Shown here piece by piece: positions 1,719 to 18,044 of a stretch of 51,015 nt of DNA. The notes under the pieces are model-generated. The model was not told where the DNA came from and searched no databases. It worked only from the letters and a program-made list of their open reading frames with translations. This DNA is from a virus (Duplodnaviria; Heunggongvirae; Uroviricota; Caudoviricetes): positions 1 to 51,015 of the IMG/VR virus record IMGVR_UViG_2721755676_000003; one strand, written 5' to 3'. Each line of letters opens with the position of its first letter. The stretch's first letter is position 1. The position numbers and the translations under genes are program-made.

Positions 1719-2804
1719 TTAGTCCACGTATTCCGGTTTCATATCCGCCAGGATGATGCTGAACTGACCATGCAGTTCGTCGCCCAGATGGCGTTTCGAC
1801 GATGCAAGAACGCGCTCTACTTCTGCGAACCGCGCAGCTGCATCGGGCTCATCTGAAGGTGGCAAGGAATTGATGGCTGCTTCGACTTTGTTCCGTGCAT
1901 CAACCAGGTAATAACGCTTCACGGCCTTGTTTTTCAGCTCAGTGAACAGGGCAGAACCCAGCGTTGATTTCACGGTTTCAATATCTGCGCGCAGAGCTTT
2001 AGCGCTATCCACATCCTGAGCCGCCTCGATGCGATCACGGAAATCATCAGCAAGTGCATCGATGTTTTGAGCTGATTCCTGAGCCATTTGAGTCGTAGTT
2101 ACGTTGTCACCTGAAATGTCTGCAAGGCTAACGTGCTGCGCCGGTGCGGGGTTTACCTCTCGTTCTTCACGGCGATCATCGAGCTCATCCGGGGTGTAAA
2201 CACCCAGAATTACATCCGGGCAGAACAGTCTCGCCCAGCGTTTGACTGCCAGGTACGCCAGCTGCTGGCGAGGGTCGTCAGCCCAGAGGGTAGAATTTCG
2301 GGTACGGGCCTGAGCCAGCAGCAAATCGAGTTCTCTCGGCTGATCTTCGCCTTTAAGCGTTGCGCGGATAATGATGCCGATCCCGGCTTCGTCAGCCAGG
2401 GTCCAGCCCGGGACGCGGTACTCGCCTTTGTCGCCTTTACGGATATTGAATTTTCCAACGACCTTTTCCCATGGCCCGTACCATTCATATTCAAAGCGGC
2501 TGGCCAGCACGCCGCTTCGTGAAATGACGGCATTAACCAGCTGCGCTTCATACCCGAGCACACCGTTAATCAGGTGCGTTTTCTGCGCCACGGCAAAGGG
2601 ATTCATCTGCCACTGTGCTGCTTGCATCGCTACAGCCATGCAGTCGGCCTGGTTGCCCTGCAGGTGTTTAGGAACGGTCGCGGTGCCTTGCGCCATGATC
2701 TGCGCAAATGTGCTGATGGCGTTCAGATACTGGGAATCGAACAGAGCCACGTTGGAGTTAATAACGGTGTTCTGGTCAGCAACGGTAACGTTTGTGTTAT
2801 GCAT
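1719..2804 (-). CDS. recT: RecT-family single-strand annealing protein
   Basis: 361-aa ORF immediately downstream of a large RecE-like exonuclease gene on the same strand; N-terminal region resembles RecT/Bet-type annealing proteins; family assignment from recall, not a search. Confidence 0.6.
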   Translation of the reverse strand: MHNTNVTVADQNTVINSNVALFDSQYLNAISTFAQIMAQGTATVPKHLQGNQADCMAVAMQAAQWQMNPFAVAQKTHLINGVLGYEAQLVNAVISRSGVLASRFEYEWYGPWEKVVGKFNIRKGDKGEYRVPGWTLADEAGIGIIIRATLKGEDQPRELDLLLAQARTRNSTLWADDPRQQLAYLAVKRWARLFCPDVILGVYTPDELDDRREEREVNPAPAQHVSLADISGDNVTTTQMAQESAQNIDALADDFRDRIEAAQDVDSAKALRADIETVKSTLGSALFTELKNKAVKRYYLVDARNKVEAAINSLPPSDEPDAAARFAEVERVLASSKRHLGDELHGQFSIILADMKPEYVD

Positions 2805-2813
2805 ATATCCCCC

Positions 2814-5558
2814 TTATGCCTGAGCGCGCAGCGCTTCGAGGCGGCGCAGGTCGAAGTCGTTCAGTTCATCTGTGTAATCGGTAGTGATCGGCGCTGGCCA
2901 TTCGCCCGTATCGAATCCGGTTGCGATGGCGCGCATTGTTTTGCGGTACTCGAGCATGCCCAGTTCCAGCAGTTCTGCGGATGCCTCAATGATGGCAATC
3001 CAGTGGTAGTTCTCGTCTTTGTTGACGAAAATCCAGAAGAACTGGTCCAGCGCCGCGGTCTCGCAATACATAGCCGCGCTGAGGTGATAGTCACGGTCAA
3101 TGATTTCCCGGTGCAGCCTGGCGCGCAGGCTTTCCTGCTTAACGTTCCACATGCTGATGGTTTTCAGGTCAGCACCGATACGCACGCCGTCCAGTTCAAT
3201 CTCGAGGTCAGGGCGTACACGCACTTCTAAACCTGTTTCGTCGTCAAAGCCGAAGTAACTCACTTCAACAGCGCGGCTTGGATGTGTCAGCAGCATGCCA
3301 GCGGTCGGGTGCGCCAGTAGTGCTGACTGAATTGCCCGCGCTGTGGCCAGCTGCTGGCGGGTAACCAGAATCTTTTCGCCAGGGTTGTCGCGCCAGGAAT
3401 CCAGCAGTTCGTCTGCGAACACTGCATCGGGCTTAACTGATTTAACCGCCTGGATCATGTCTGCTTTGCTGCCGGAGACTTTCAGCGGCGTTGGTTTCTG
3501 CGCATCCTGTGCGACCAAATCAGGATTGATGATCGCTAATTGCTCGATTAGCGCATCACGGCTGCCGCTGGTTTTAACCGGCACGGGCAGGGTGGCGTTG
3601 TACTCTTTAATGCATGCCTTCATTGCAGCTGCTGTCTGCTTCTGGCCTTCTTCAATACGCTGGTACTCAGCTGGGAGAGCCATATAGCTTTGAGCCGTTT
3701 CTTCCAGGCTCGCGCCAAGCGGCACTGGAGCGGGAAGGGCTGCGTTATGTTCTTCAAGCAACGCTTTAATCTCGTCAGCGCTCAGCAGTGCCGGCAGGCT
3801 GGCGTTGTACCCGTCGATGAACTCACGCAGAGTAGCGGTGGTAGTGAAAGCTCCCTCCGGGATCTCAGGTTCTACGCTGAACTCTGCTTCGAGGTTTTCC
3901 GGTTGCAGTGCAAGGGCGTGCACCAGATTTCCCATATCCAGCACTTTGGATGCTGTGCGCGGGATGGTTTTAGCCACATGGCGTGCGTTGAAGTACATCA
4001 GGCTGACGCGGGCATCTTTCACCTGGGTTGAGCTGATACCGTTTGCTGCGTGATAAACATCATTCGGCAGACCTTCGTAGCGGCCAGGTTCGAAGTATGC
4101 AGGGAACTCCACTTCTGGGTTCGATTCCTGAACGTCAATTGTTGTTTCCGGCAACTGGTCTGCTTCTACGGAATCTGTCTGCGAATTAGCTGCATCAGTG
4201 CCTTCGCCTGGTTGTACCGGATCAGTATTTTCGACTTTCTCTGGCTGAGTCGTTTCCATCTGCACATCGCTGGTGGTCTCCGCTGTAACCGGTGAACGGT
4301 CATCGTTCTGTGTTTGTTTTTCGTTCATCAGGTTATCGATAGTGAACATGCCATCGCCACGGTTCGTGACCTGCGGCTGCGTTGCTAACGATGCTTTTTC
4401 CGCTTCAATCTGCTCGTTAACTTCACTTTCCCAGCTCACCTCTGGATTGTGCCGCGCTGCAGCCAACGTTTCGGCTGTTGGTTTTCCATGATCGCTTTCA
4501 GTCAGATTGGCACTGATGTATCCGCTGAGGCGCCCCGGGTTTTTGTAATATTCCGGGTGTGCGCTTCTGATAAGCGCGAAGATTGATGCGCGTGAATAGT
4601 CGAGAATGCCAGGGGTATTGCGAAGAGCGGCAGACCACTCCTTGAATGGACTTTCTTTAGCTGCGACGATTTCTTTCGCCCTACGGTAAACATATCCGGG
4701 GATATCGTAGACATTGAAATCATCAGGCAGGGTGGCCAGAGCTATTTCACTGTCGAGTGTATCGAGCGTGTGTGTGTAGCCTGAATTACGATCTGTTTCA
4801 TTTCCGCCACCTGCATTTGTGCCGACGTCAGTACGCTGCACGCTGCTAATTCGGTTTCCGGCAGCCCATTCGCGAACGAGAATGCCGCGATCGATATGCT
4901 CGGTGTTGAACCAGGTCTTAAAGAAATGAATGACAAGAGACAGCTCTGTCCGCTTCCCGTCTAACGGGAAGATAGTCTTCAGAGCCTCAACAACCCTGGC
5001 AATTTCGAATTCAGTCGCTTTTTTGAACGCATCGACGTTCTCTGCAGCGAGCAGCATGTTTTGAACGTAGCTGTTATCGACATCCATCTCGAGCTGTTGA
5101 ATTTCATTCTTCTGCTCAGTGTCGATGTGATAGGCGTACTCGTCAGAAATGAACTGAGCCAGAATGCGCTGACGCAGTGGGAGCTTAGCAACCGTGATCA
5201 GCTCAGGCATCTTTGTGTCTTTGGTATCAGTAATACTGCAAGTCGACTGCTCAGAAGAGTTCTGGTAAGAATCTTCATGCTGTAACTTCTCTTTCCACGT
5301 ACGCTGGTCTTCGTCCAGTTCGTAGCGTTTGCACCAGGTGTAATCCACGGTGCTTTCTTCAGGTAGATCGTTGTAAACAGGGAAATCGGTGCGAACCGGT
5401 TTTGAGTAATCCTTACCGCGGCCGGTTTCAATACCAGCATCTTCCAGCTCGACATCGAGCTGCAGGTTGGCGCGGGCTTCAGATTTCGCAGTGAACCAAA
5501 TCACTGCATCTTCTTTGCCAGATTTCTGCGTAGCCTTAACTACATAGAAAAATTCCAT
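2814..5558 (-). CDS. recE: RecE-like exonuclease VIII (large protein with C-terminal PD-(D/E)xK nuclease domain)
   Basis: 914-aa ORF with acidic low-complexity central region and C-terminal D...ExK-like motif (RPDLEIELDGVRIGADLKT); paired with recT as in Rac-type prophages; RBS AGAGGA upstream of ATG. Confidence 0.6.
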   Translation of the reverse strand: MEFFYVVKATQKSGKEDAVIWFTAKSEARANLQLDVELEDAGIETGRGKDYSKPVRTDFPVYNDLPEESTVDYTWCKRYELDEDQRTWKEKLQHEDSYQNSSEQSTCSITDTKDTKMPELITVAKLPLRQRILAQFISDEYAYHIDTEQKNEIQQLEMDVDNSYVQNMLLAAENVDAFKKATEFEIARVVEALKTIFPLDGKRTELSLVIHFFKTWFNTEHIDRGILVREWAAGNRISSVQRTDVGTNAGGGNETDRNSGYTHTLDTLDSEIALATLPDDFNVYDIPGYVYRRAKEIVAAKESPFKEWSAALRNTPGILDYSRASIFALIRSAHPEYYKNPGRLSGYISANLTESDHGKPTAETLAAARHNPEVSWESEVNEQIEAEKASLATQPQVTNRGDGMFTIDNLMNEKQTQNDDRSPVTAETTSDVQMETTQPEKVENTDPVQPGEGTDAANSQTDSVEADQLPETTIDVQESNPEVEFPAYFEPGRYEGLPNDVYHAANGISSTQVKDARVSLMYFNARHVAKTIPRTASKVLDMGNLVHALALQPENLEAEFSVEPEIPEGAFTTTATLREFIDGYNASLPALLSADEIKALLEEHNAALPAPVPLGASLEETAQSYMALPAEYQRIEEGQKQTAAAMKACIKEYNATLPVPVKTSGSRDALIEQLAIINPDLVAQDAQKPTPLKVSGSKADMIQAVKSVKPDAVFADELLDSWRDNPGEKILVTRQQLATARAIQSALLAHPTAGMLLTHPSRAVEVSYFGFDDETGLEVRVRPDLEIELDGVRIGADLKTISMWNVKQESLRARLHREIIDRDYHLSAAMYCETAALDQFFWIFVNKDENYHWIAIIEASAELLELGMLEYRKTMRAIATGFDTGEWPAPITTDYTDELNDFDLRRLEALRAQA

Positions 5559-6332: not shown

Positions 6333-7265
6333 TTAGTTAAGACTTTTAATCATATAGTTACGTCTAGAGATCTTTAATCTGTCATTATGAATTTCTGTAA
6401 CGCTAGCAACCATTGATACGTGTGAGCCTACTTTAAATCTTGACTGTATTTCACTAAGCATATCAATAGGATATGATGCCTTTATCTTTCCGTCAGCGTT
6501 CACCACTTCGAGTTTGCCATACATAGAGAGCAGTGATAGCTCACCTGTGATAATTTCATTCCACGGTTTGGATATTTCCGTGAAAGCTAACCTTTTTGTG
6601 AGCCTATCAATAGCTTCTTTGTTTAAGGAAACCGAACGCCTACCTTCACTTAACGGTCCGATCCAAGATAATTCTAGTGCTAAGCCATTTCGCTCGCACT
6701 CTTCTACAATGTTTTTAAGGTTATGCGTTGAATTCGACCCAATTTCAGCAAGTTTAGAAATAAATGAATCTTCGTCAGTGGCCTCTAGTACTGAGAAAAT
6801 TTCTTTTACAGCATGGCTAGAAACCGTATCAACCAGTTCACATGCCCCTGTGGAGAACGTTACGGCTAGCTTTGTTGAACCAGGCCTCAAATCAGCCAGT
6901 CTCATATCTAGAGACTGCTTTATCCCTACAGGTACCTTGCGTGAGTCTTTTCCTGATGAAATCCGATGTACGGCTTTTTGAACTAGGCCAGCAAGGTTTC
7001 CAGAAATGACAGAAAGTAATTCCAGAGGCATAGTTCCTGCGTCAACAAGAAAACCTTTGAACCTTAACTCCATGAAATCTTGGAGCGGGTGCTCTATCTC
7101 AGCAGATCTCAGTTCAGCCCTCAAATCGCTTAAATGGGAATCTAAGCTGCGCGCTAAAATTCTGTCGGCAAGAGTCATTTCATGAGCAGGGCCGATTTTG
7201 TTCATACGATCCTGAATGAACGCAATCCTTTGTTTTAATGGTATAAATTTTGGCTCTGTGCTCAT
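6333..7265 (-). CDS. Uncharacterised 310-aa protein, second gene of NTase-led operon
   Basis: 310-aa ORF; start ATG overlaps upstream gene stop (ATGA coupling); no motif I can assign; soluble. Confidence 0.6.
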   Translation of the reverse strand: MSTEPKFIPLKQRIAFIQDRMNKIGPAHEMTLADRILARSLDSHLSDLRAELRSAEIEHPLQDFMELRFKGFLVDAGTMPLELLSVISGNLAGLVQKAVHRISSGKDSRKVPVGIKQSLDMRLADLRPGSTKLAVTFSTGACELVDTVSSHAVKEIFSVLEATDEDSFISKLAEIGSNSTHNLKNIVEECERNGLALELSWIGPLSEGRRSVSLNKEAIDRLTKRLAFTEISKPWNEIITGELSLLSMYGKLEVVNADGKIKASYPIDMLSEIQSRFKVGSHVSMVASVTEIHNDRLKISRRNYMIKSLN

Positions 7266-7735
7266 ACTACAACCCTCGCTAAACCTTTTGGCGTTTCCTC
7301 TCTATCGTATCCAAAGCACCCTCGCCAATACATCCTGTCGTTTGTATAATCAGACTTTGGATCCCCTTTGAAAAGAGGTAAAAGGTCAATATGATAATTT
7401 AACTTTATAAAATCCCTATCCAAGAGACTTTCAACCTGAGGGGCAAACATTATAGGAATGGCATTTATAGCATCAAAATCCATAACAACTAGTATATCGA
7501 CATCATCGGGATCTAGTTTTTCAGTTGTAAATGAGCCGTCTACCCAAATTTCCAGAAAGCAATTAAATTGCTTATTAAGAACGCGCAAGTTGGTAATTAA
7601 CTGTATGAAATTACAGTATAGCATGGATCTACGAGTTGACTTAGGAAAACTATCAACACATATTTTTTTCAACTGGTTGTCATCAATATCATGAAAACCT
7701 GGTGTGAAGAGTGGCGGATAGCATTTCTTAGACAT
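7262..7735 (-). CDS. Small nucleotidyltransferase-fold protein (Pol-beta/minimal NTase signature)
   Basis: 157-aa ORF containing hG[GS]-x9-DxD-hhhh signature (IWVDGSFTTEKLDPDDVDILVVMDFD) typical of minimal nucleotidyltransferases. Confidence 0.5.
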   Translation of the reverse strand: MSKKCYPPLFTPGFHDIDDNQLKKICVDSFPKSTRRSMLYCNFIQLITNLRVLNKQFNCFLEIWVDGSFTTEKLDPDDVDILVVMDFDAINAIPIMFAPQVESLLDRDFIKLNYHIDLLPLFKGDPKSDYTNDRMYWRGCFGYDREETPKGLARVVV

Positions 7736-7860: not shown

Positions 7861-8244
7861 TTAATCTTCTTGAGTACGAATCCGTCCCTTCATGTACTTC
7901 TCATACAGGTCATCTAGTTCTTTCAGACGAATCGCGAAGATGCGGAGCATGTTCTGCTGCTCTTCTTCCGGTAACTGGCGGTAGAGCTCCAGCAAGCGCT
8001 GTTCGTCCGGCTTAAGTCCATCTTTTTCACCAACGTCCTCACCGAGTAACCAGGCGACAGAAATGCCTACAGCGTCGGCTATGGCCAGTGCCGATTTCTT
8101 ACTAATCACGCCTTTTTTGAACCAGCCGTTTACGGCCTGAGGAGTGACTCCAGCTATTCGTGCCAAGTCTGCTTTTGTAACGCCGCGATCAGTGATCTCA
8201 GTAAGGCGCTCTACCAGAACGAGGTTGGGTTCTTCTTTTCTCAT
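7861..8244 (-). CDS. Prophage repressor, HTH (XRE/Cro-CI family, RacR-like, no peptidase domain)
   Basis: HTH segment GVTKADLARIAGVTPQAVNGWFKKG; divergent from cro-like gene across an operator-rich intergenic region; start chosen at MRKEE (alternative ATG at 8274); the ORF-track start at 8346 is implausible because it abuts the cro start. Confidence 0.7.
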   Translation of the reverse strand: MRKEEPNLVLVERLTEITDRGVTKADLARIAGVTPQAVNGWFKKGVISKKSALAIADAVGISVAWLLGEDVGEKDGLKPDEQRLLELYRQLPEEEQQNMLRIFAIRLKELDDLYEKYMKGRIRTQED

Positions 8245-8250
8245 AGGGTC

Positions 8251-8319
8251 ATTGTAAATATTTGGTTTATACATACAATAAATCCAAGATTTGCATGAAA
8301 TATAAATCTGTGGTTTACT
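8251..8319. promoter_or_regulatory. OR-like operator/promoter region (two TAAAT-N4-GGTTTA repeats; PR candidate -35 TTGCAT, -10 TTTACT)
   Basis: Repeats at about 8255-8269 and 8304-8318; the second overlaps the candidate PR spacer/-10 upstream of the cro-like gene RBS AGGAG. Confidence 0.4.
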
Positions 8320-8346
8320 TTTGCTGTTAATAAGCAGGAGAAGCAC

Positions 8347-8574
8347 ATGTCCGCACTCGATAAAGCAATTAAAGCCGCTGGCTCAGCCAGAAAGCTCAGC
8401 ATCGCGCTTGGTGTGACGAGTATGTCTGTAAGTCATTGGAAGAATCGTGACCAAGGGATCGTCCCGCCAAGTTATATATTCCCGATTTTCAAAATGACAG
8501 GCGTAACTCCCCATGAGCTGCGCCCCGATCTCTATCCAAACCCAACAGACGGTTTACCTAAACAGGAGCCCTAA
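8347..8574 (+). CDS. Cro/YdaS-like HTH protein
   Basis: 75-aa ORF, divergent from repressor, strong RBS; HTH-like SARKLSIALGVTSMSVSHW. Confidence 0.6.
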   Translation: MSALDKAIKAAGSARKLSIALGVTSMSVSHWKNRDQGIVPPSYIFPIFKMTGVTPHELRPDLYPNPTDGLPKQEP

Positions 8575-8576
8575 CA

Positions 8577-9128
8577 ATGCAAACTGTTTCATTTCAACAG
8601 AGTAGCAGAGCTTCCTCTAATCCACTGATATTCCCATGTCATCAAAGCGAATCTGCAACGCAGGATATTGATCATCGCGATATTTGTTCTGCAGTCCGGG
8701 CGTGGGCAGCGGCAGAAGGGCGCTTAGCTGTTGCGCTTCATATCCAAGAAGCGGCGGAAGAACTTCAACTTGATGGCGTGGATTTCTCAGGCCAGGCAGA
8801 TGTCTGGAACGTGAAGCTGTTCCGTTGGTTGGACAATAAAGACGATTCCGCATCCTACCGTAGAAACGTCGAGCAACTGTTACCCGCGATCATGTCTGTA
8901 TTGCCGCTTCGATACCGCGACCGTGTCGTAAAGAACGACTCGTTTGCTTACCGAATGGCACGGCTGGAAAAAGAGGTTAGTGAGGCGAAGCAAGCGCTGA
9001 TGCTCGATGCACCAAAGAAGGAAAAGCTGAAGGAGTTAGGCGAGGGGATTTTCGAAATGTTCAGAGTCGACCCTGACCTAACGGCGCCTTTACTGGCGAT
9101 GGTCACAACCATGCTGGGGGCAATGTGA
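8577..9128 (+). CDS. YdaT-like protein (cII-position regulator)
   Basis: 183-aa ORF between cro-like and O-like genes; segment QLLPAIMSVLPLRYRDRVV resembles recalled Rac YdaT (LIPAILAILPRELRHRL). Confidence 0.45.
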   Translation: MQTVSFQQSSRASSNPLIFPCHQSESATQDIDHRDICSAVRAWAAAEGRLAVALHIQEAAEELQLDGVDFSGQADVWNVKLFRWLDNKDDSASYRRNVEQLLPAIMSVLPLRYRDRVVKNDSFAYRMARLEKEVSEAKQALMLDAPKKEKLKELGEGIFEMFRVDPDLTAPLLAMVTTMLGAM

Positions 9129-9212
9129 AGACTTCAGAAAAGGCGAAAGCCGGTCTGCGCTAACAGAACCGACTTTCAGGTGCAAAAACGGAGTGTAATT
9201 GCGGAGCTAAGT

Positions 9213-10130
9213 ATGTCAAACACAGCTGAAATTATCAATTTCCCCCACAGAACCGAACAACCGGGAGGTCGTATGGCCGAACTGTCGAACGGGTATACCA
9301 AGGTCGCAAACGAGATCCAACAGCTCAAGCCTCGTCTGAGAATGTCAGGCCGGGAGTGGCAGTGTTTTGAGGCGGTGATCTGGCTTACCTACGGCTGGAA
9401 CAAGAAACAGGACCGCGTTACGAATACAGTGATCGCCGAGCTTACTGGGCTGAGTGATTCCCACGTTTCTGATGCGCTCAAATCGCTCGCAGAACGCAAA
9501 ATTATCTTCAGTCAGAAGCAGGGTGTGATGAAAACGGTCGGTATAAATACTGACCTTTCCGCCTGGATTTTAGACAAACCGAAAACGGGAAAAGTCTTCC
9601 CGAAATCGGGAAAAGTGTTACCGAAAACGGGAAAAACCTTCCCGGAAACGGTAGACACCCAAGACTATAACAAGAACAATATTAAAATATCCTCGTCTCG
9701 GAATTCTGACGAATCCCGAAACCAGAAAACTCAAAAGTTTCTCTCACGCCATCCAGAAGCTGCCGCCGGGATATACACCCCGGCAGGTAAATCATGGGGA
9801 TCCGCTGACGACCTCAAGGCCGCTCACTGGATTTACGACAGGCTTCTCACCGTCAACGCATCGCTATCGGAACCCAACTGGGCTGAATGGGCAAACACCA
9901 TCAGGCTGATGCGTGTCCAGGACAAACGTACTCACTACGAAATCTGTGACCTGTTCCAGTGGGCCAACCGGGACGAGTTCTGGAAAGACAACATCCTGAG
10001 CCCTTCGAGTCTGCGCAAACAGTGGGATCAACTCACTACCAAGCGGCTGCGTGCAACCGCAGCGGTAAAACCATCCCGGGGCGGCATCGACCTGCACAAT
10101 ACCGACTGGATTGACGGGGTGCTGGAATGA
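9213..10130 (+). CDS. Replication initiator, lambda O-like (iterons inside gene)
   Basis: N-terminus MSNTAEIINFP...LTYGWNK resembles lambda O (MTNTAKILNF...KTYGWNK); start set at ATG 9213 with RBS GCGGAG; coding region contains iterons plus AT-rich tract. Confidence 0.7.
   Translation: MSNTAEIINFPHRTEQPGGRMAELSNGYTKVANEIQQLKPRLRMSGREWQCFEAVIWLTYGWNKKQDRVTNTVIAELTGLSDSHVSDALKSLAERKIIFSQKQGVMKTVGINTDLSAWILDKPKTGKVFPKSGKVLPKTGKTFPETVDTQDYNKNNIKISSSRNSDESRNQKTQKFLSRHPEAAAGIYTPAGKSWGSADDLKAAHWIYDRLLTVNASLSEPNWAEWANTIRLMRVQDKRTHYEICDLFQWANRDEFWKDNILSPSSLRKQWDQLTTKRLRATAAVKPSRGGIDLHNTDWIDGVLE
9581..9660. repeat. ori iterons: about 3.5 direct repeats of a 21-bp unit (GAAAACGGGAAAAGTCTTCCC-like), followed by AT-rich tract (about 9661-9693)
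   Basis: gaaaacgggaaaagtcttccc / gaaatcgggaaaagtgttacc / gaaaacgggaaaaaccttccc / ggaaacgg... read directly; encodes the KPKTGKVFPKSGKVLPKTGKTFPE peptide repeat. Confidence 0.6.
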
Positions 10131-10813
10131 AAAACATCGCAGAGAGCATTCGCGATTTTGACCGGGAACAGGCTCGCCGAATAGCGCACAACCTGCCTGA
10201 GCAGTACACCGAACGCGAGCAAACGCAACAGGTGGCCCAGATTATCAACGGGCTGTTTGTACAGCTGGCGGCCGCGTTTCCGGCAAGCCTGGTTAATCGC
10301 AGCCAAGAAGACGTGAACGAGATCCGCCGCCAGTGGGTGCTGGCCTTCAAAGAGAACGGGATCACGACCATGGATCAGGTTGAAGCGGGCATGCGCATGG
10401 TGCGCCGTCAGGAGCGACCATTCCTGCCTTCGCCAGGCCAGTTCATCAAGTGGTGCAGGGAAGGGCGCAGCGTGCTGGGGATCACCACCGCTGACGTTAT
10501 GGCTGAATACTGGAAGTGGCGCAAGCTGGTGTTCCGGTATCCGAGCAGTGAGCAGTATCCGTGGCCTAAGCCGGTCTATTATCACATCTGTCTGGAGCTG
10601 CGTCGCCGCGGAACTGATGGTCAGTTGTGTCAGAAAGAGCTTGAGCGTGAGGCTGGAGATATACTGGGTATGTGGGAAAAGCGGGTGCTGGCCGGGAAGC
10701 CGATTCCGCCCGTTCGAAGGGCTCTGGCAGCGCCGGTATCGCCGAAGGGGCCGACACCGGCAGAGCTTTTGAAAGCTAAATATCAGCGGATGAAAGCTGA
10801 TGGCAGGGCATAG
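10127..10813 (+). CDS. Replication protein P-like (helicase loader)
   Basis: 228-aa ORF, ATGA-coupled to the O-like gene; size and position match lambda P; weak recalled similarity. Confidence 0.55.
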   Translation: MKNIAESIRDFDREQARRIAHNLPEQYTEREQTQQVAQIINGLFVQLAAAFPASLVNRSQEDVNEIRRQWVLAFKENGITTMDQVEAGMRMVRRQERPFLPSPGQFIKWCREGRSVLGITTADVMAEYWKWRKLVFRYPSSEQYPWPKPVYYHICLELRRRGTDGQLCQKELEREAGDILGMWEKRVLAGKPIPPVRRALAAPVSPKGPTPAELLKAKYQRMKADGRA

Positions 10814-10875
10814 GGATGAAATGGTCAGCTATGAGCAAAGTGCGGCCACGCGGGAGCATGTTTTATCTATGAAAA

Positions 10876-11712
10876 CTAATGATGATAAATACCATCGTCT
10901 AAAGGGGGACCTTCAGCAGTAACCCCCGTGATTCTACTTGGCGGTTCAAAGATGGCCTCACCAAATATCGCATCAAACTCTGCTTTGGTGACTGATAAGT
11001 ATTGCAAGATGAGCTCTAGCAGCTCTCTGTACGTATCACAATGCCATTCAATGTGAGGACATATTTGGGAGAGAACTCTGGTCTTAAAATCATCCAGATT
11101 TTTTGGGACTTCCAGCAAGTTACCAGTGTTTAATGCTTTCGACATAAACTTGTAATTGAGCATGGAGAGAACCATTACTGATACACCTTTCTCTTGCCTT
11201 AACTGATCGAACTTCTCTTGTGCTTGAAGGCTTAGCTTGGCGTATTCGCGATCTCGTTTTGAGTTGACTGGTTCGACGTACTGAAGCGGTTCGTCTGCAG
11301 CATCACCGATACGTGGACAAAAGTATCTATTCCACCAAGCCTCAAAATACCTTTTTTGGAACTCTAGGTATGTCATCCCAATAATATTGGTGTTTTGAGT
11401 GTACTGTTTAGCACCCTGCTGAAGCCCGTGCTTTGAAATAATAAATCCAATGTTAGCCCCGGTTTCATGCATTACCGTGGTGAACGAATGGACCACCGTC
11501 TGAGGTATAGAACTACCCCAGTTTTTGCATTCCACAATGTATCTGATTTTGTCCACGCTCCTAACATCTGTAGCTAGAACATCCACATTCACCGAGCCAC
11601 GCGGTGTTTCTAAATCGACCTCGACTTCTGCAAACAAGCCAACATTACGGAATATACGTTGGACCCCTGTCTGGAGGTCTTGCCAGTTTTCTGGTAATGG
11701 GTCATCGATCAC
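10876..11712 (-). CDS. Mrr-like restriction-endonuclease-fold protein (PD-(D/E)xK) with unknown C-terminal domain
   Basis: N-terminal VDVLATDVRSVDKIRYIVECKNW (D...ExK) typical of Mrr_cat nucleases; opposite strand to the replication genes. Confidence 0.5.
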   Translation of the reverse strand: MIDDPLPENWQDLQTGVQRIFRNVGLFAEVEVDLETPRGSVNVDVLATDVRSVDKIRYIVECKNWGSSIPQTVVHSFTTVMHETGANIGFIISKHGLQQGAKQYTQNTNIIGMTYLEFQKRYFEAWWNRYFCPRIGDAADEPLQYVEPVNSKRDREYAKLSLQAQEKFDQLRQEKGVSVMVLSMLNYKFMSKALNTGNLLEVPKNLDDFKTRVLSQICPHIEWHCDTYRELLELILQYLSVTKAEFDAIFGEAIFEPPSRITGVTAEGPPLDDGIYHH

Positions 11713-12046
11713 TTTTACTTTTCCTATGCACTATCCGCATGCTTTTAAGACTACTTGAAGACACAAACGTCGTCATCCACTAAAAGGTTCAAATTTGAGA
11801 TGATAGTTCGTTTCTGGTATGAAACGAACCGTTTGAAGAGCCGAGTGCTCTGCTAAGAGCCAGGAGTGGACGTTCTCAAAGCATTGCTTACATCGAGGAT
11901 GTATTAATCAACGGGGTGCAGGTCAATTGATCCATAAAAGGTTGAATGCTCTATACTAAGCACTAGTAAAAAACATTGCACAACATACACTTAAGGTTTA
12001 AATTGCTTATCACCAAAACATAAATTTAATCATAGGCTGATGGCGT

Positions 12047-13510
12047 ATGCTAAAGGTAATTAAAAAAGGTATTGGCTTCAATAAAACAGAAAAAAGATTG
12101 ATTGAATTAGCTAATAATGCCTTTATAGGTTTGTGGTCATATCCTAATGTTTATAGTGATGAGGGTTTTGCAAAAAATAAATCGGGTAAAGAAGTGTGTG
12201 ATTTATTAGTGGTTTTTGAAAATAATGTAATTTTGTTTTCTGATAAAGACATTAAGTTTAATGATGAAATTGATATCCATATTGCATGGAAAAGATGGTT
12301 TAGGAGAGCAGTAATCGAATCAGCGACTCAACTGCATGGAGCTGAAAAATTTCTAAAAGAGCAAAGTGACAGATTATTTCTTGATAAAGAGTGTAAGGAG
12401 AGGTTTCCAATAACAATTGACAATAAGATGCGCTTTTTTTTGATCGCAGTAACTAGCAATAGCGCAATTCCAGCTTTCAATTACTTTGGTCGTATCGCGG
12501 AAGGAAGTTCTGGAACTTTAGTAAATTGCTTTCCCTTTGGAATAAAGGAAAGTATGGAGCAACCTTTTACTGTTGGAGATTTGTATCCTGATAAGACATT
12601 TATCCATGTTTTAGATGAACTATCGTTAAAATTACTATTCTCTGAGCTGGATACAATTACTGACTTCGTTGACTATTTAAAAGAGAAAGAACGAGTCGTG
12701 AGGACAGGTTTTCTTGGATTAAGTCCTGGTGAGGATGACACACTGGGTGCCTACTTGATCGGGCATGGATTAATAGTAGATGAAAAGAAGGTGCCAAAAA
12801 ACTCGTTTGTTCGAATTGCAGAGCATGAATGGACTGAACTAAAAAAATCGCAATTATATGAATATTATACAGCTCTAAAAAAAGGTAGCTATTTTTGGGA
12901 TGAAACAGTACAACGTTTTTCCGATTCCATATTAAATGCAACTGTTGGTCTAGGTAAGGAAAATGACTTTCTTAGTCATGAGGAAACATTAAGACAATTA
13001 GCCTCTGAAAGCAGAGAATCAAGATATTATTTATCTAAATCATTCTTGGATAAATTCAAGCAAGTTCCTTCTGACAGAAGAAGCTCCAGAATCGTAGAGT
13101 CTTTAGATGAAAAAGGAAAGTTTTATATTTTTTTGTTTTTTCCGCGTGAAAAACATTTATCATATGAGGAATATAGAAACGAACGTTTTTCTTGCATTCA
13201 AATGTATGCGTTAACAGCTAAATATAAATACCCACAAATAAAAAAACTCATAGTCATTGCTACTGAAAGTAAAGACTCCGAAGGTCGTTCAGAGGATGTG
13301 GTATTTTGTCGATTTGATAACCCCCTTTCAAAAGGCGAACGTCTGTTTGTACAATCAGTGATGCACGAATATAGCATACTTACTGATTTCATTCCAAAAC
13401 CGAACAATAAATTAAATTTGTCACCGATAGTTAAAAGTGACAAGAAACCTGGAAGGAATGAACCTTGTTTTTGTGGATCTGGTATAAAATATAAAAAATG
13501 CCATGGATAG
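12047..13510 (+). CDS. SEC-C motif protein of unknown function (AT-rich cargo)
   Basis: 487-aa ORF ending in CFCGSGIKYKKCHG (SEC-C metal-binding motif); strongly AT-rich relative to phage backbone. Confidence 0.6.
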   Translation: MLKVIKKGIGFNKTEKRLIELANNAFIGLWSYPNVYSDEGFAKNKSGKEVCDLLVVFENNVILFSDKDIKFNDEIDIHIAWKRWFRRAVIESATQLHGAEKFLKEQSDRLFLDKECKERFPITIDNKMRFFLIAVTSNSAIPAFNYFGRIAEGSSGTLVNCFPFGIKESMEQPFTVGDLYPDKTFIHVLDELSLKLLFSELDTITDFVDYLKEKERVVRTGFLGLSPGEDDTLGAYLIGHGLIVDEKKVPKNSFVRIAEHEWTELKKSQLYEYYTALKKGSYFWDETVQRFSDSILNATVGLGKENDFLSHEETLRQLASESRESRYYLSKSFLDKFKQVPSDRRSSRIVESLDEKGKFYIFLFFPREKHLSYEEYRNERFSCIQMYALTAKYKYPQIKKLIVIATESKDSEGRSEDVVFCRFDNPLSKGERLFVQSVMHEYSILTDFIPKPNNKLNLSPIVKSDKKPGRNEPCFCGSGIKYKKCHG

Positions 13511-13955
13511 AAAATTAGCATAATTCTATTAACTCATTGCCATTATCTTGACAAAACTAAATGGAAACTTGTCATATTTATTTCTTGAAAATATTTAATT
13601 ACTGGCTGTAGCAACTTTAACTTAGTGCGGGCATAGCTATGAATCTCCGATTGTACTGGCAGGGGGCTACAACTTTAGATGACTCACTCCCATCTTCAAC
13701 AAGCTAGCTGGCTGCCTTGTGTTGCGAGGATTCGTAATGATGATGTCAGTTTTGTCCGCTTCTGGCAAGAGGCGGACGAGATGGCTAGGCTTAAGACCTG
13801 CTGAAAGCCAGGAGCTGACATCACTACAACTTTTAATGCTAACTTCACTTAAAATAATTTTGGAATTTGCACATATGGGTTATATAAGTAAATCATCGCA
13901 ATGAGTTCTATGCGATAATTTTATATTTAGTCCCCATCTTTATCGGATGGTTCAT

Positions 13956-14729
13956 CTAAGCTTTAACTCGCCTGACAAGAGTTTTACTGCAACCTATACT
14001 GAGAAGGTGGCGTCGAAGATTTTTATCAATATGACTATCCAACGTGGTAATTAAAAACACTATATCCTCAATAACCTTAACAACATCCGAGCTTGATATT
14101 TTAGTGAGGCTTACCTTTGGTCTGTCACAATTATGGATACAATCATGTCTCCTCTGAATTAGCGAAGTATATCTGTTAGTTAGCTTTTCTAACATAGATT
14201 TCCGTTTTTTTTCTTTATCCTCTTTGGATAACTTTTTGTAAGCTGTTGGAGTGGTTCCCATAAGACGATGCTTCGCTGACTTATTTATCAACCAGTCCTC
14301 CATCATCGGCTTTGTTAATATTTTGTTTTTTTCATCCATGATATGATTGAACAAATCCTTAATTTTATCGATTGAAAGTACGTTATCTTTTTCAATCAAG
14401 TCACGTGCTGCATTTCGCCATTTCCAATTCGAAGTTGTATTCTGAGCATTCACGATAGAATTTATAGGTAACTTCAATGACCTTATCTTTGGGCTTAATT
14501 TGACATTGCTGTCAATGCTTTTTGCAATTAGGATTTTTGATAACACATCTGCAAATGCATCACAAAAATATGCATCAAGTGCTCCAATCGCAATCATCCA
14601 AGAGGCTCTATATATATCATCCTTTAGAGTCGATATAGGTAATGAATCAGCATGAGCTATAAGGTCTTTTGCTCTATTAATATCCTGATTAAAATGACTT
14701 AACGCTGTGCTTGGCATATAACACCTCAA
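13956..14729 (-). CDS. HEPN-like protein (candidate abortive-infection RNase)
   Basis: 257-aa ORF with C-terminal R-x4-H motif (LIQRRHDCIHNCDRPK) in a helical, lysine-rich protein; AT-rich. Confidence 0.4.
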   Translation of the reverse strand: MRCYMPSTALSHFNQDINRAKDLIAHADSLPISTLKDDIYRASWMIAIGALDAYFCDAFADVLSKILIAKSIDSNVKLSPKIRSLKLPINSIVNAQNTTSNWKWRNAARDLIEKDNVLSIDKIKDLFNHIMDEKNKILTKPMMEDWLINKSAKHRLMGTTPTAYKKLSKEDKEKKRKSMLEKLTNRYTSLIQRRHDCIHNCDRPKVSLTKISSSDVVKVIEDIVFLITTLDSHIDKNLRRHLLSIGCSKTLVRRVKA

Positions 14730-15040
14730 AATAAATGATTTATATGGTTAATTGGAAATGCAAAACTTAAATTTTAGTTTATACCGTTTGTTGCCAGAAT
14801 ACGATATATTCACAGATTCTAGACCATTAACATTGGCACTACAGCCAGATAATGAGTTTGAACGTACACCGTAGTATACTTTCTGATCTGCCCACCCCAA
14901 AAAAATTAGTACTATCTGGATTACCACAGTCCGCTCTTGTCACCCAAATGTTATTTTACCTTAATGACATTAGATTTCATTTGGATCAGATTGCCGCAAC
15001 TATCAGTGTGCGGCAAGTAGCTGAAGCATTCATAGAGTAT

Positions 15041-16285
15041 TTATGGGTCAAGGAGGGATTTAAACTGAGATATGGGATAGTCATATCGTTCGTTATAGAA
15101 TGCCGCAAGCTTGCAGTATTCTGCTAGGTGAGCATCTGGCCTGTATGGGACAATCGCTCCTTCAATCGATAGCTCAATACTATTAGTGACAATCAACATC
15201 AAGGCATGATCTTTAGTAAATAGTTGTTCTGAAAGTAAACGATATTTATTTTTAGGCTCGGAAATAGTTTTGAATGATTCGAACGTGTCATTAATAAACT
15301 GAAGTGCCAATGCTCCAGGTCGTTTTCCTGTCAGTTGTTTTTTTAACGCCCGCTTAGATACTTTCTCAACCTCTTTCCAAATTTGTACATCACCTGCGGA
15401 TACGACCCGAATTCCCTTTAATCGATGCTCAGAGTCATGGCAGGCCACTAACGCTGCTGTGGAGCCATGGAGTGTTTGTGCTGCATTGAAGACTACATTC
15501 TCATCAGTTTTATCTCCCAATAATGGGCAAAATTCTTCAACAACAGAAAACTTTTCGCTGTGTATATCGTTGCCTTGAGTTTCAATCTCGTCTACTAGGC
15601 GAGCCATAAATTCTTTGAAGCTTTTATCGTTCTTAGGCACAGGTTCCGTCAAAATGATGGTCAAGATACTTGCGAATCCTTCCTTTGCAGTGAGAAGTCT
15701 GTCGAGCGAGATTTTTTCCAGCAAAGCACCAATCAAGCGATGCCCATCTGCAAGACTAACAGCAAAACCTTTATCACCTGCGAAGGATTTGCACTCAAGC
15801 TCAAATGGAGGAAGCCCTTGAGGTGGGTAGACTAGAAGGTCAAAGGTCTCCTCGCCTTTACTTTCCTCTGGCCATTCAATGGAGCACCCCCTGGAGATTA
15901 GTGTTTTGGCCATATATAACTCGTACTGCAAAGCGCGCATGTCGCTGGCAAGCTTGAACGCACCCTCGAAACGTTTTTTGAGTTCCCTGGGGCCTGGTTC
16001 ACCTCTTTCCACTGCTTCACACAGTTCCACCACTCGCTGCACAAATAACATTGTCTGGAACATTGTATTCCATTCGTATCCCGCATTTAATGCATACTGA
16101 TTTCTATCCCAAAACGTCAAACCGAATGCTACTGAGTTTTCTAATTCTTCCTGTCCACCACGTCCAGCAAATTGATTTGAAAGTAACTTTATGTCCTGAA
16201 CGACCTTCAGCCAAGGCTTTAAAGGGAAAAGCTTGACTAAACGGTTATAAATATCAGGGAAGCTAAGCATAATGAGGGGCATCAA
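15041..16285 (-). CDS. Hypothetical 414-aa protein with PD-(D/E)xK-like motif
   Basis: ETFDLLVYPPQGLPPFELECKSF (D...E-x-K) suggests a nuclease fold; otherwise unrecognised. Confidence 0.45.
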   Translation of the reverse strand: MMPLIMLSFPDIYNRLVKLFPLKPWLKVVQDIKLLSNQFAGRGGQEELENSVAFGLTFWDRNQYALNAGYEWNTMFQTMLFVQRVVELCEAVERGEPGPRELKKRFEGAFKLASDMRALQYELYMAKTLISRGCSIEWPEESKGEETFDLLVYPPQGLPPFELECKSFAGDKGFAVSLADGHRLIGALLEKISLDRLLTAKEGFASILTIILTEPVPKNDKSFKEFMARLVDEIETQGNDIHSEKFSVVEEFCPLLGDKTDENVVFNAAQTLHGSTAALVACHDSEHRLKGIRVVSAGDVQIWKEVEKVSKRALKKQLTGKRPGALALQFINDTFESFKTISEPKNKYRLLSEQLFTKDHALMLIVTNSIELSIEGAIVPYRPDAHLAEYCKLAAFYNERYDYPISQFKSLLDP

Positions 16286-16790
16286 ATATTATCTCCTTAG
16301 GTCAGCGCTTAAACAAAACTCCATCTTTAATACAACGTTTAATCTGCAAGAGCATACTACAGTGAATATCTGGGCGTCATATGCCCAATGCCCGAAAGCA
16401 TAATATGTATGCCTTTTAGCTGAAACTGGCCTTCACTCTGCAGACCTGAATACGTCACAAGCAAGGACCAGAGTAGTATCGGCATTGGTTGTGAAATCTT
16501 TAATTCACATGATGAGAGCATTATGCAACGGGTACTTTAACGATGATACCGAAGCGAGAACCTTTCTTGCAGGTTCTCGCTATAGGGCTTGGTAATAGCA
16601 TGTTGCTTGTCAGTCATGCCACATACCCAAACGTTCATTCTTGCTTCCGCTTTAAAACACTCAATCCACAGAAACTACAAGTCTTCACGCTGGAAGTAAC
16701 CTGTTGTTTGTTTGGGGGGCACATAATCTCAGTAAGTTACATTGTGATCTCATAAAACGTTGCAAAATCCGTTACATAAGTTTATAAAAG

Positions 16791-16810
16791 CACTGTACAT
16801 GCATACAGTG
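16791..16810. promoter_or_regulatory. LexA (SOS) box upstream of dinI-like gene
   Basis: Perfect palindrome CACTGTACATGCATACAGTG (CTGT-N8-ACAG) about 20 nt upstream of the dinI-like ATG. Confidence 0.55.
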
Positions 16811-16828
16811 ATTCGTTGCGGAGGGAAA

Positions 16829-17053
16829 ATGAAAATCGAGCTAACCATTGATCGCATGAAGAAACTTCCTGATGGAGCTATACCTGCGCTCGAGTCAGAA
16901 CTGCTCGAAAGACTCAGCAAGCAGTTTGATGATTGCCAGCTTACGATTAGGCGTGCCAGTAATGATGGTTTGACTGTTTTCTGGGGCGACAAGAAAGAGG
17001 TCGAACATATCGTGCAGGAGACCTGGGAAAGCGCGGACGAGTGGTTTTATTAA
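16829..17053 (+). CDS. dinI: DinI-family protein
   Basis: MKIELTIDR...VQETWESADEWFY matches recalled E. coli DinI (MRIEVTIAK...LQETWESADDWF); start at internal ATG with RBS GAGGGA. Confidence 0.8.
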   Translation: MKIELTIDRMKKLPDGAIPALESELLERLSKQFDDCQLTIRRASNDGLTVFWGDKKEVEHIVQETWESADEWFY

Positions 17054-17159
17054 TCGCGTGAATTTCACTGGAGCAGTTTCAAAGAGTATCGCTGTTTGCG
17101 TTCCCCTGGCTGTTCCCGATTACTGTTTACCGCGTCATTAAGTCGCTCTGGGGGAAATA

Positions 17160-17402
17160 GTGTGTAGTGCAGATGCCTTTAATGCAGATGATCAATGGTA
17201 CGACGTGGTCAGAAGGGCCGATAAAGCAGTTATCTATAGCTTCCCGGCTGAAGGGAGATATCTGGTTTATCGAGTAAATGGAATAGTTTCATTACGACCG
17301 TTACTCGAAGAGGAAGAAATCTTCACTCTCAACGGGTTCATGCAATTTGCAAAACGGCTTGGGTACCGAATTACACCACCGTCTGATATTATTCTTTCAT
17401 AG
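17160..17402 (+). CDS. Hypothetical nin-region protein
   Basis: 80-aa ORF with GTG start and RBS GGGGGA; no motif recognised. Confidence 0.35.
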   Translation: MCSADAFNADDQWYDVVRRADKAVIYSFPAEGRYLVYRVNGIVSLRPLLEEEEIFTLNGFMQFAKRLGYRITPPSDIILS

Positions 17403-17441
17403 GCCTGAACAACCTATACCTGATGCGCCACGGAGAGAACC

Positions 17442-18044
17442 ATGGCGCTAGAATTACAACTTATCAAACACCACTCAGGAATACTGATCCCGGCTACGCC
17501 CGAGACCAGCGATATTCTGCAATCCAAAACCCGGCTCGGCGATGTTCTTGTTGCCGAGTTCAAGCGGGTACGAAACCCGGCATTTCACCGGCGCTTTTTC
17601 GCGCTTCTCAATCTCGGTTTTGAATACTGGGAACCAACCGGCGGGGCTATTTCTAGCAACGAGCGAAAGCTGATTACCGGCTACGCCAAATTCCTGGCTT
17701 CTTATGGCGGGAATGAGGGCGCGCTAATCGATGCTGCTGAGCAGTATCTGGAACAGGTTGCTTACCGGCGCGTCACGAATGGTATTAGCCTGTGCAAATC
17801 CTTCGATGCTTACCGCTCCTGGGTGATCGTCGAGGCAGGGCACTTTGATGCCATTCAGCTGCCAGACGGAACACTCAAGAAGCATCCTCGCAGCATCTCG
17901 TTTGCCAATATGGACGAGCTCGAGTTTCAACAACTCTATAACGCTGCGCTCGATGTCCTCTGGCGCTGGGTCCTGTCGCGTTCATTTCGCAGCCGTGACG
18001 AGGCCGAAAACGTCGCCGCACAGCTGCTTGGCTTTGCGGGGTGA
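17442..18044 (+). CDS. Conserved lambdoid nin-region protein (possibly YbcN/DUF1367-like)
   Basis: 200-aa ORF positioned as in DLP12-type nin regions, upstream of rusA; family assignment by weak recall only. Confidence 0.45.
   Translation: MALELQLIKHHSGILIPATPETSDILQSKTRLGDVLVAEFKRVRNPAFHRRFFALLNLGFEYWEPTGGAISSNERKLITGYAKFLASYGGNEGALIDAAEQYLEQVAYRRVTNGISLCKSFDAYRSWVIVEAGHFDAIQLPDGTLKKHPRSISFANMDELEFQQLYNAALDVLWRWVLSRSFRSRDEAENVAAQLLGFAG

Follow-up and report, generated by a model that had tools for sequence, protein, structure and literature searches.

Escherichia coli Mrr, MspJI, AspBHI and PvuRts1I/AbaSI are single polypeptides of one catalytic family or fold, which have no cognate methyltransferase and are often encoded in defence regions. 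In Mrr and in MspJI/AspBHI, the reader domain (a winged helix or an SRA-like β-barrel) is N-terminal and the nuclease is C-terminal. Here, we describe a protein that shares these features of family or fold, single chain and genomic setting, but in which the nuclease is N-terminal and is followed by an all-helical bundle. Its gene occupies the P-ninB interval of a lambdoid prophage, the Caudoviricetes record IMGVR_UViG_2721755676_000003 of IMG/VR; the whole stretch analysed, positions 1 to 51,015 of that record, is called the window below. Public databases label the protein merely 'restriction endonuclease'. What is new is that an N-terminal Mrr-type catalytic module is combined with a novel helical domain peculiar to this family, and that the gene is borne on a minimal mobile cassette found in the defence hotspots of prophages.

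The closest solved structure, PDB 1y88, is that of AF1548 from Archaeoglobus fulgidus, an Mrr_cat protein of the same domain order that has not been characterised. AF1548 is only 14% identical in sequence, has 184 residues and carries a much shorter helical domain, unrelated to the bundle of 130-160 residues found here; we take that AF1548 domain to be of the helix-hairpin-helix type. The protein is not a canonical Mrr, as Mrr_cat is N-terminal, there is no Mrr_N match and the domain order is reversed, nor is it of the MspJI/AspBHI or PvuRts1I type, as its second domain has no β structure and no SRA barrel. Shedu (SduA, DUF4263) belongs to a different nuclease subfamily with the reverse domain order, and its non-catalytic domain is exchanged among many types, whereas that of the present family is fixed; the nuclease matched neither the PADLOC Shedu models nor DUF4263/SduA. 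The sole PADLOC model matched was PDC-S02 (E = 3e-5, residues 43-107 against positions 236-301). The two share a PD-(D/E)xK core, but in PDC-S02 the nuclease is at the opposite end of the protein and the remainder is unmatched; with 66 of 346 profile positions matched, membership of PDC-S02 was ruled out. In its genomic logic, the locus resembles P2 Z/fun, lambda ren and rexAB and the McrA of e14, each a moron with its own promoter (a presumed one in our case) in a variable slot of a temperate phage, but these have no sequence or fold relation to the nuclease.

The reading frame is an intact, real gene, and a chance open reading frame is ruled out by its 336 homologues of nearly equal length (250-290 residues) and by the ratio of nonsynonymous to synonymous substitution (dN/dS). 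Against the copy from Proteus, dN/dS was 0.03 for the N-terminal domain, 0.14 for the C-terminal domain and 0.33 for the tail. The ranges were 0.10-0.25 for residues 146-250 and 0.24-0.35 for residues 251-278. Both modules of the protein are under purifying selection. An AGGAA ribosome-binding site lies at 11721-11725, 9 nt 5′ of the GTG. The start codon is correctly assigned, because MIDDP is also where the homologues begin, with ATG in Proteus, Kangiella and Raoultella, GTG in E. coli and Pseudomonas and TTG in Pantoea. The gene has a GC content of 43-44%, compared to 56-60% in the adjoining replication genes.

The catalytic module was recognised by score, by residues and by predicted fold. 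The Pfam Mrr_cat profile (PF04471) matched residues 9-111 over 100 of its positions (5-104 of 115) with an E-value of 4.3e-11 and 43.4 bits, against a gathering cut-off of 21 bits. D44, E61 and K63, the codons of which were checked on the raw sequence (Table 1), are invariant in two sets of close homologues, of 23 and of 115 sequences, and their conservation is still at least 90% in relatives down to 30% identity. An AlphaFold2 model built on 23 homologues (mean predicted local distance difference test score 89.1, predicted template modelling score 0.87) predicts an α/β core for residues 1-114, five helices for residues 115-250 (115-146, 151-158, 162-189, 206-217 and 228-250) and a mostly extended tail for residues 251-278, and the predicted core has the restriction-endonuclease-like α/β fold. 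The best fold match of the model was AF1548 (1y88), with a score of 15.0 over 134 residues, followed by NucS (11.0), the FokI cleavage domain (10.9), Can2 (10.6), VC1899 (10.2), LlaBIII (10.0), AspBHI (9.4) and MspJI (8.0); all of these matches were restricted to the nuclease part. In summary, the protein is a member of the Pfam Mrr_cat / PD-(D/E)xK superfamily.

The conserved module extends beyond the α/β core. Among the 115 homologues, column entropy was 0.2-0.5 bits in the helix of residues 115-145 and 1.1-1.9 bits beyond it, so that the module reaches about residue 140-145 and includes the first long helix with W126-W127 and F131-C132-P133; residues 141-278 are three to five times more variable. 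W126 and Y145 are invariant in the wide family. The few other positions of the C-terminal domain that are kept family-wide are E147 and N150 (in YxEPxNS), L160, and F246 and F250 (in EFxxxFG). The family-mean net charge is -4.4 for the C-terminal domain and -2.9 for the tail (-4 in the present protein), and the tail is missing from distant members of 250-260 residues.

No Pfam or PDB match and no specific fold match were obtained for the C-terminal domain, and the protein has no Mrr_N winged helix and no SRA, YTH/EVE/ASCH or McrB-N domain. When the domain alone was compared by HMMER to 1.84 billion representative proteins, 46 clusters were found, in which it occupies about residues 115-255 of proteins of 250-280 residues; two further hits, of more than 2,000 residues, were repeat proteins matched on a stretch of 25-48 residues and were judged spurious. 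A profile of 21 diverse C-terminal domains retrieved 238 proteins out of 5.8 billion. Among the 120 matches listed, nearly all carry PF04471 and have 245-290 residues, the few exceptions (about 200-230 residues) being fragment-like. As the domain was seen only at about residues 115-255 of Mrr_cat proteins of 245-290 residues, the notion of a swappable sensor was rejected. By these profile comparisons, the domain appears to be integral to this family, with a fixed architecture.

A first-pass annotation of the window had read VDVLATD and IRYIVECKNW as the motifs of an Mrr-like PD-(D/E)xK nuclease and had proposed a profile search with Mrr_cat and a structure prediction as checks. The motifs are at residues 43-49 and 56-65, and the score above the cut-off, the invariant catalytic residues and the fold match bear out the assignment. 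The same annotation had given the protein a helical, unrecognised C-terminal domain of about 170 residues. Its helical nature agrees with the predicted five-helix bundle, which matched no known fold, while its size has to be revised, as the nuclease module reaches about residue 145 and the variable part covers about 130 residues.

The gene travels as a cassette of about 1.1 kb, which consists of the gene, about 210 bp upstream and about 55 bp downstream. A megablast search of 5,426 complete E. coli genomes found eight with 96% DNA identity, confined to positions 10824/10841 to 11925 of the window. All of the E. coli loci inspected are in P2-like prophages, with the gene for tail-fibre assembly on one side of the cassette and that for the tail sheath on the other. 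This position is the Z/fun locus, which has been named as a P2 site of antiviral genes (PMC13586616). Lambdoid prophages of Proteus mirabilis have a 92% identical copy, placed between the gene for the Q antiterminator and those for lysis; its homology to the window starts about 25 bp 5′ of the start codon. A phage-plasmid of Buttiauxella carries a further 92% copy, with a GNAT/DUF1778 pair next to it.

More divergent copies have other surroundings again. A 74% copy (gene 1692-2528, TTG start) is the main cargo of pC3_4, a plasmid of 3,609 bp from Pantoea sp. C3, which also encodes a serine recombinase (206 residues) and an open reading frame of 171 residues, and a 44% copy is on a plasmid of Yersinia ruckeri. 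A 73% variant adjoins an Abi_2 gene in Pseudomonas synxantha, a 64% variant occupies the cargo end of a Raoultella int-alpA island, and a 71% variant from E. coli and Shigella has a HEPN-like gene and the integrase gene of a different lambdoid prophage as neighbours. In summary, the cassette is autonomous, and its recent moves have taken it into accessory or defence slots of temperate phages that are unrelated to one another, as well as of phage-plasmids, islands and a tiny plasmid.

Table 1. Features of the nuclease gene, its cassette and the surrounding prophage, in coordinates of the window.
Feature	Position	Strand	Remarks
Mrr-type nuclease gene with helical C-terminal domain	10876..11712	-	complete coding sequence, 278 residues + stop, GTG start; list of open reading frames
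PD-(D/E)xK α/β catalytic core (Mrr_cat), residues 1-114	11371..11712	-	
Catalytic D44 codon	11581..11583	-	invariant in 23 close, near-invariant in 22 distant homologues
E61-C62-K63 codons, (D/E)xK motif	11524..11532	-	invariant; aligned to the ECK of AF1548 (PDB profile search); E61, 11530-11532; K63, 11524-11526
First long helix, residues 115-145, YLEFQxRYFEAWWxRYFCPRIGDAAD...Y	11278..11370	-	conserved like the catalytic core
Variable part of the five-helix bundle, residues 146-250 (YxEPxNS and EFxxxFG motifs)	10963..11277	-	AlphaFold2; dN/dS
Acidic tail, residues 251-278 (GVTxDGPPL)	10879..10962	-	specific to the gamma/betaproteobacterial subfamily
5′ flank travelling with the gene (presumed promoter and 5′ untranslated region)	11713..11925	-	96% identical in E. 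coli P2-like prophages; homology ends at 11925
3′ flank travelling with the gene	10818..10875	-	kept in the window and in the E. coli P2-like and Proteus loci, not in more distant copies
RecT and RecE-like genes	1719-5558		
cI-like repressor	7861-8346	-	
Cro/YdaS, CII-like protein, O, P	8347-10813		
Low-GC island	10876 to ~16300		32-45% GC compared to 56-60% in O and P

Members of the family occur in Bacillota (Oscillospiraceae and Bacillus) and in Alpha-, Beta- and Gammaproteobacteria, and its spread is patchy, with 27 out of 185,579 species-representative genomes matching close-family patterns. Relatives are encoded on 17 IMG/VR viral contigs, and megablast and tblastn searches of 50,697 sequenced phage genomes found no copy. 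Distant members, with about 25-30% identity in the C-terminal domain, lie directly upstream of complete type I restriction-modification operons in Oscillospiraceae/Oscillibacter (loci L027, 103-1484, and L028, 6001-12777). In L027, a gene for a PycTM (Pycsar effector-like) protein ends 18 bp before the nuclease gene; the contig starts there, and a cyclase gene may have been cut off. Another distant member is beside an ABC-three-component system in Bacillus thuringiensis. In a qualitative tally of contexts, the family thus occupies known hotspots (P2 Z/fun, and the P-ninB, Q-lysis and int-proximal slots of lambdoid prophages) and has Abi_2, type I restriction-modification, PycTM and ABC-three-component genes among its neighbours.

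No DNA methyltransferase gene adjoins the nuclease gene in at least ten independent contexts, and the hsdM found near distant members belongs to complete hsdRMS operons. Type II restriction-modification was ruled out, as there is no linked methyltransferase and the cassette holds a single gene. Co-directional open reading frames are present upstream of the gene in E. coli P2-like prophages (317 residues, or 125 and 192 residues) and in Proteus (215 and 111 residues). The upstream reading frames of the two hosts are unrelated to each other and gave no family matches. A multi-gene system was rejected since these reading frames are unrelated and since the SEC-C protein gene, which neighbours the nuclease gene in the window, occurs elsewhere without it. 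The neighbours differ in each context, and no dedicated methyltransferase or antitoxin is among them. The nuclease gene is therefore stand-alone: the upstream reading frames are unrelated, the SEC-C gene is separable and a methyltransferase is never linked. The first-pass annotation had called the gene stand-alone from the lack of a methyltransferase next to it, and this holds more widely, as the 92-96% identical cassette has unrelated neighbours in three phage backgrounds.

A role in defence appears well supported by association, and the protein is probably a defence nuclease of some kind. As for the mode of action, the absence of a methyltransferase or antitoxin implies that the enzyme is inactive until triggered, or that its substrate is absent from the host. 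We tentatively favour the former, namely a trigger-controlled, single-protein defence nuclease, because the protein has no known modified-DNA reader fold, because its helical domain is neutral to acidic and because the variable part is patterned like a recognition or regulatory surface. Under this scheme, the prophage would express the nuclease in the lysogen so as to destroy the DNA of superinfecting phages. The gene opposes the early-right operon and so must have its own promoter, as far as can be judged from its orientation; transcription antisense to that operon would be on in the lysogen. The nuclease would cut DNA, and the C-terminal domain, possibly together with the acidic tail, may keep it inactive or unassembled until an infection cue arrives, so that the host chromosome is spared. 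A phage protein or DNA of abnormal form could provide the releasing cue. Such trigger control would resemble that of other single-chain defence nucleases such as Shedu. A more specific proposal is at present doubtful, namely that the C-terminal domain is an undescribed sensor fold which keeps the Mrr-type nuclease switched off and frees it by directly recognising a phage-encoded cue, either a protein or DNA of an unusual form.

Several observations weigh against a trigger-controlled defence nuclease. The evidence for defence is entirely one of association, and no paper testing or studying this nuclease family was found in the literature searched. PADLOC-DB 2023 holds no model for it beyond the weak match of PDC-S02 to the nuclease core. 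The N-terminal domain is unusually conserved for a defence gene, and the copy in Kangiella lies among housekeeping genes, with no evident mobile or defence context. A scan for sigma-70 consensus sites in the flanks of the gene found no promoter site, and a promoter and terminator scan scored no better than shuffled sequences. Unlike in many modular defence proteins, the C-terminal domain is never exchanged with other effectors or sensors, and it could simply serve dimerisation or DNA clamping. The term 'sensor domain', used in the first-pass annotation, should accordingly be qualified, as a domain never found with another effector is an integral part and not a swappable module. A single-gene 'Mrr_cat' occupant of the P4-satellite defence hotspot (WP_000113630, at least 15 occurrences; Rousset et al. 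2022, PMC9122126) may or may not belong to this family.

The other mode of action left by the missing methyltransferase is type IV restriction, in which the helical domain would read a modification absent from the host (hydroxymethylcytosine, glucosyl-hydroxymethylcytosine, 7-deazaguanine derivatives or other hypermodified bases) and the Mrr core would cut; unmodified self DNA would be no substrate and a methyltransferase would be unneeded. The catalytic family, the likeness to the nuclease domains of MspJI/AspBHI and the lack of a methyltransferase all fit, and distant members do adjoin type I restriction-modification operons. However, a known modified-base reader is missing, the C-terminal domain is all-helical with no specific fold match, and a neutral-to-acidic charge in the domain and tail is unusual for a DNA-binding module. 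The range of targets is also narrowed: N6-methyladenine at GATC and the 5-methylcytosine made by Dcm are excluded, because the hosts, presumably Dam+ and/or Dcm+, carry these marks and because one Proteus prophage that holds the nuclease gene also has a D12-class adenine methyltransferase. On balance, we consider a type IV enzyme less probable than a trigger-controlled one. The first-pass annotation had left the choice between a type IV enzyme and an effector with a sensor; the pair is plausible and is strengthened by the placement in defence hotspots, while the type IV half gained no positive support, given the lack of a known reader and the charge of the domain.

Two explanations outside defence were also weighed. 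The position in the window, adjoining O and P and near NinB and RusA, together with a fold that resembles NucS and archaeal Holliday-junction resolvases, would suit a structure-specific or end-processing nuclease of the element itself, acting in recombination, on replication intermediates or in the degradation of host DNA during lytic growth. Such a role is improbable, as the gene opposes the early-right operon, comes with an upstream region of its own, recurs in unrelated slots (the P2-like tail region, the Q-lysis interval, an int-proximal site and the 3.6-kb plasmid) and, with none of the 50,697 phage genomes carrying it, is no normal part of any phage life cycle. The compactness of the cassette, its 92-96% DNA identity across genera and replicon types and its place as main cargo of the 3.6-kb plasmid could instead point to a selfish element, either a free-standing homing endonuclease, of which PD-(D/E)xK examples exist, or an orphan restriction or toxin gene kept in check by an unlinked methyltransferase or antitoxin (addiction). 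We regard this as very improbable: the insertion sites, in at least five unrelated contexts, share no flanking genes or sequence and thus no common homing site, no conserved partner gene adjoins the nuclease gene, and an orphan type II enzyme in need of an unlinked methyltransferase could not move so freely between hosts.

The association with defence is what a specialist would expect rather than a surprise; the interest comes from the helical domain, the small size and the documented hops. If the gene is protective against phages, the defence catalogue would gain a very small single-gene system, of 837 bp, in which a well-understood nuclease core bears a regulatory or recognition domain of a new kind; it would also be a clear case of one defence cassette moving among hotspots (the P-ninB, Q-lysis and Z/fun slots), phage-plasmids and a 3.6-kb plasmid. 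Should the sensor-fold proposal be true, the cassette of about 1.1 kb would be among the smallest self-contained, trigger-activated anti-phage systems, and one common to lambdoid phages, P2-like phages, phage-plasmids and small plasmids. Modification dependence would make the all-helical domain a new type of modified-DNA reader, of possible use in epigenetic mapping. If inactive against phages, the protein would be one more generically annotated 'restriction endonuclease'.

Some minor features of the cassette and its variants were also seen. The shared upstream region contains a perfect 9-bp inverted repeat (GTTCGTTTC...GAAACGAAC) at 11800-11823; since the copies from E. coli disrupt three of its nine pairs, it probably forms no conserved structure. 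Rfam found nothing in 10600-17500, and a regulatory RNA or terminator in the cassette flanks was rejected on this null result, on the hairpin not being kept and on the scan that was no better than shuffles. In the 3′ flank of the cassette, the octamer GCGGACAT stands three times in tandem at a single P2-like locus of E. coli (L002, about 7990-8030, equivalent to about 10830-10850 of the window) and once in the other copies. The 71% variant (loci L019 and L024) is always followed by a protein of 313 residues (gene at 12925-13866 of L024), with weak matches to HEPN_RES_NTD1 in Pfam and to RTasHEPN in PADLOC; this HEPN-like protein is missing from the window and from the 92-96% copies.

Within the prophage, the low-GC island starts with the nuclease gene, which is convergent to P and divergent from the gene for the 487-residue SEC-C protein. 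On the 3′ side of the island are DinI, NinB, RusA, Q, the lysis genes and lambda/mEp234-like structural genes. The SEC-C protein (12047-13510, plus strand, 32-36% GC) has a C-terminal metal-binding motif of the SEC-C/YecA type (Pfam, 2.4e-9) and matches PHROG 18195, to which no function is assigned, over its full length; a D...SDK stretch in its N-terminal part could be a further nuclease-like motif. Its gene is present at 74% DNA identity in eight other E. coli genomes that lack the nuclease gene. Two more reading frames of the island, 13956-14729 (257 residues) and 15041-16285 (414 residues), both on the minus strand, had no match in Pfam, NCBIfam, PHROGs or PADLOC; several assemblies of Enterobacteriaceae (loci L004-L009) keep both of them along with the island, and the two are possible further cargo or defence genes. 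Directly downstream of the cI-like repressor, in the slot that corresponds to that of rexAB in lambda, there is a minus-strand operon of two genes with a 4-nt overlap, 7262-7735 (157 residues, DUF6932) and 6333-7265 (310 residues). The pair matches the PADLOC candidate system PDC-M63 over its full length (A, 8.9e-40; B, 8.9e-44) and is therefore a second likely defence locus on the prophage.
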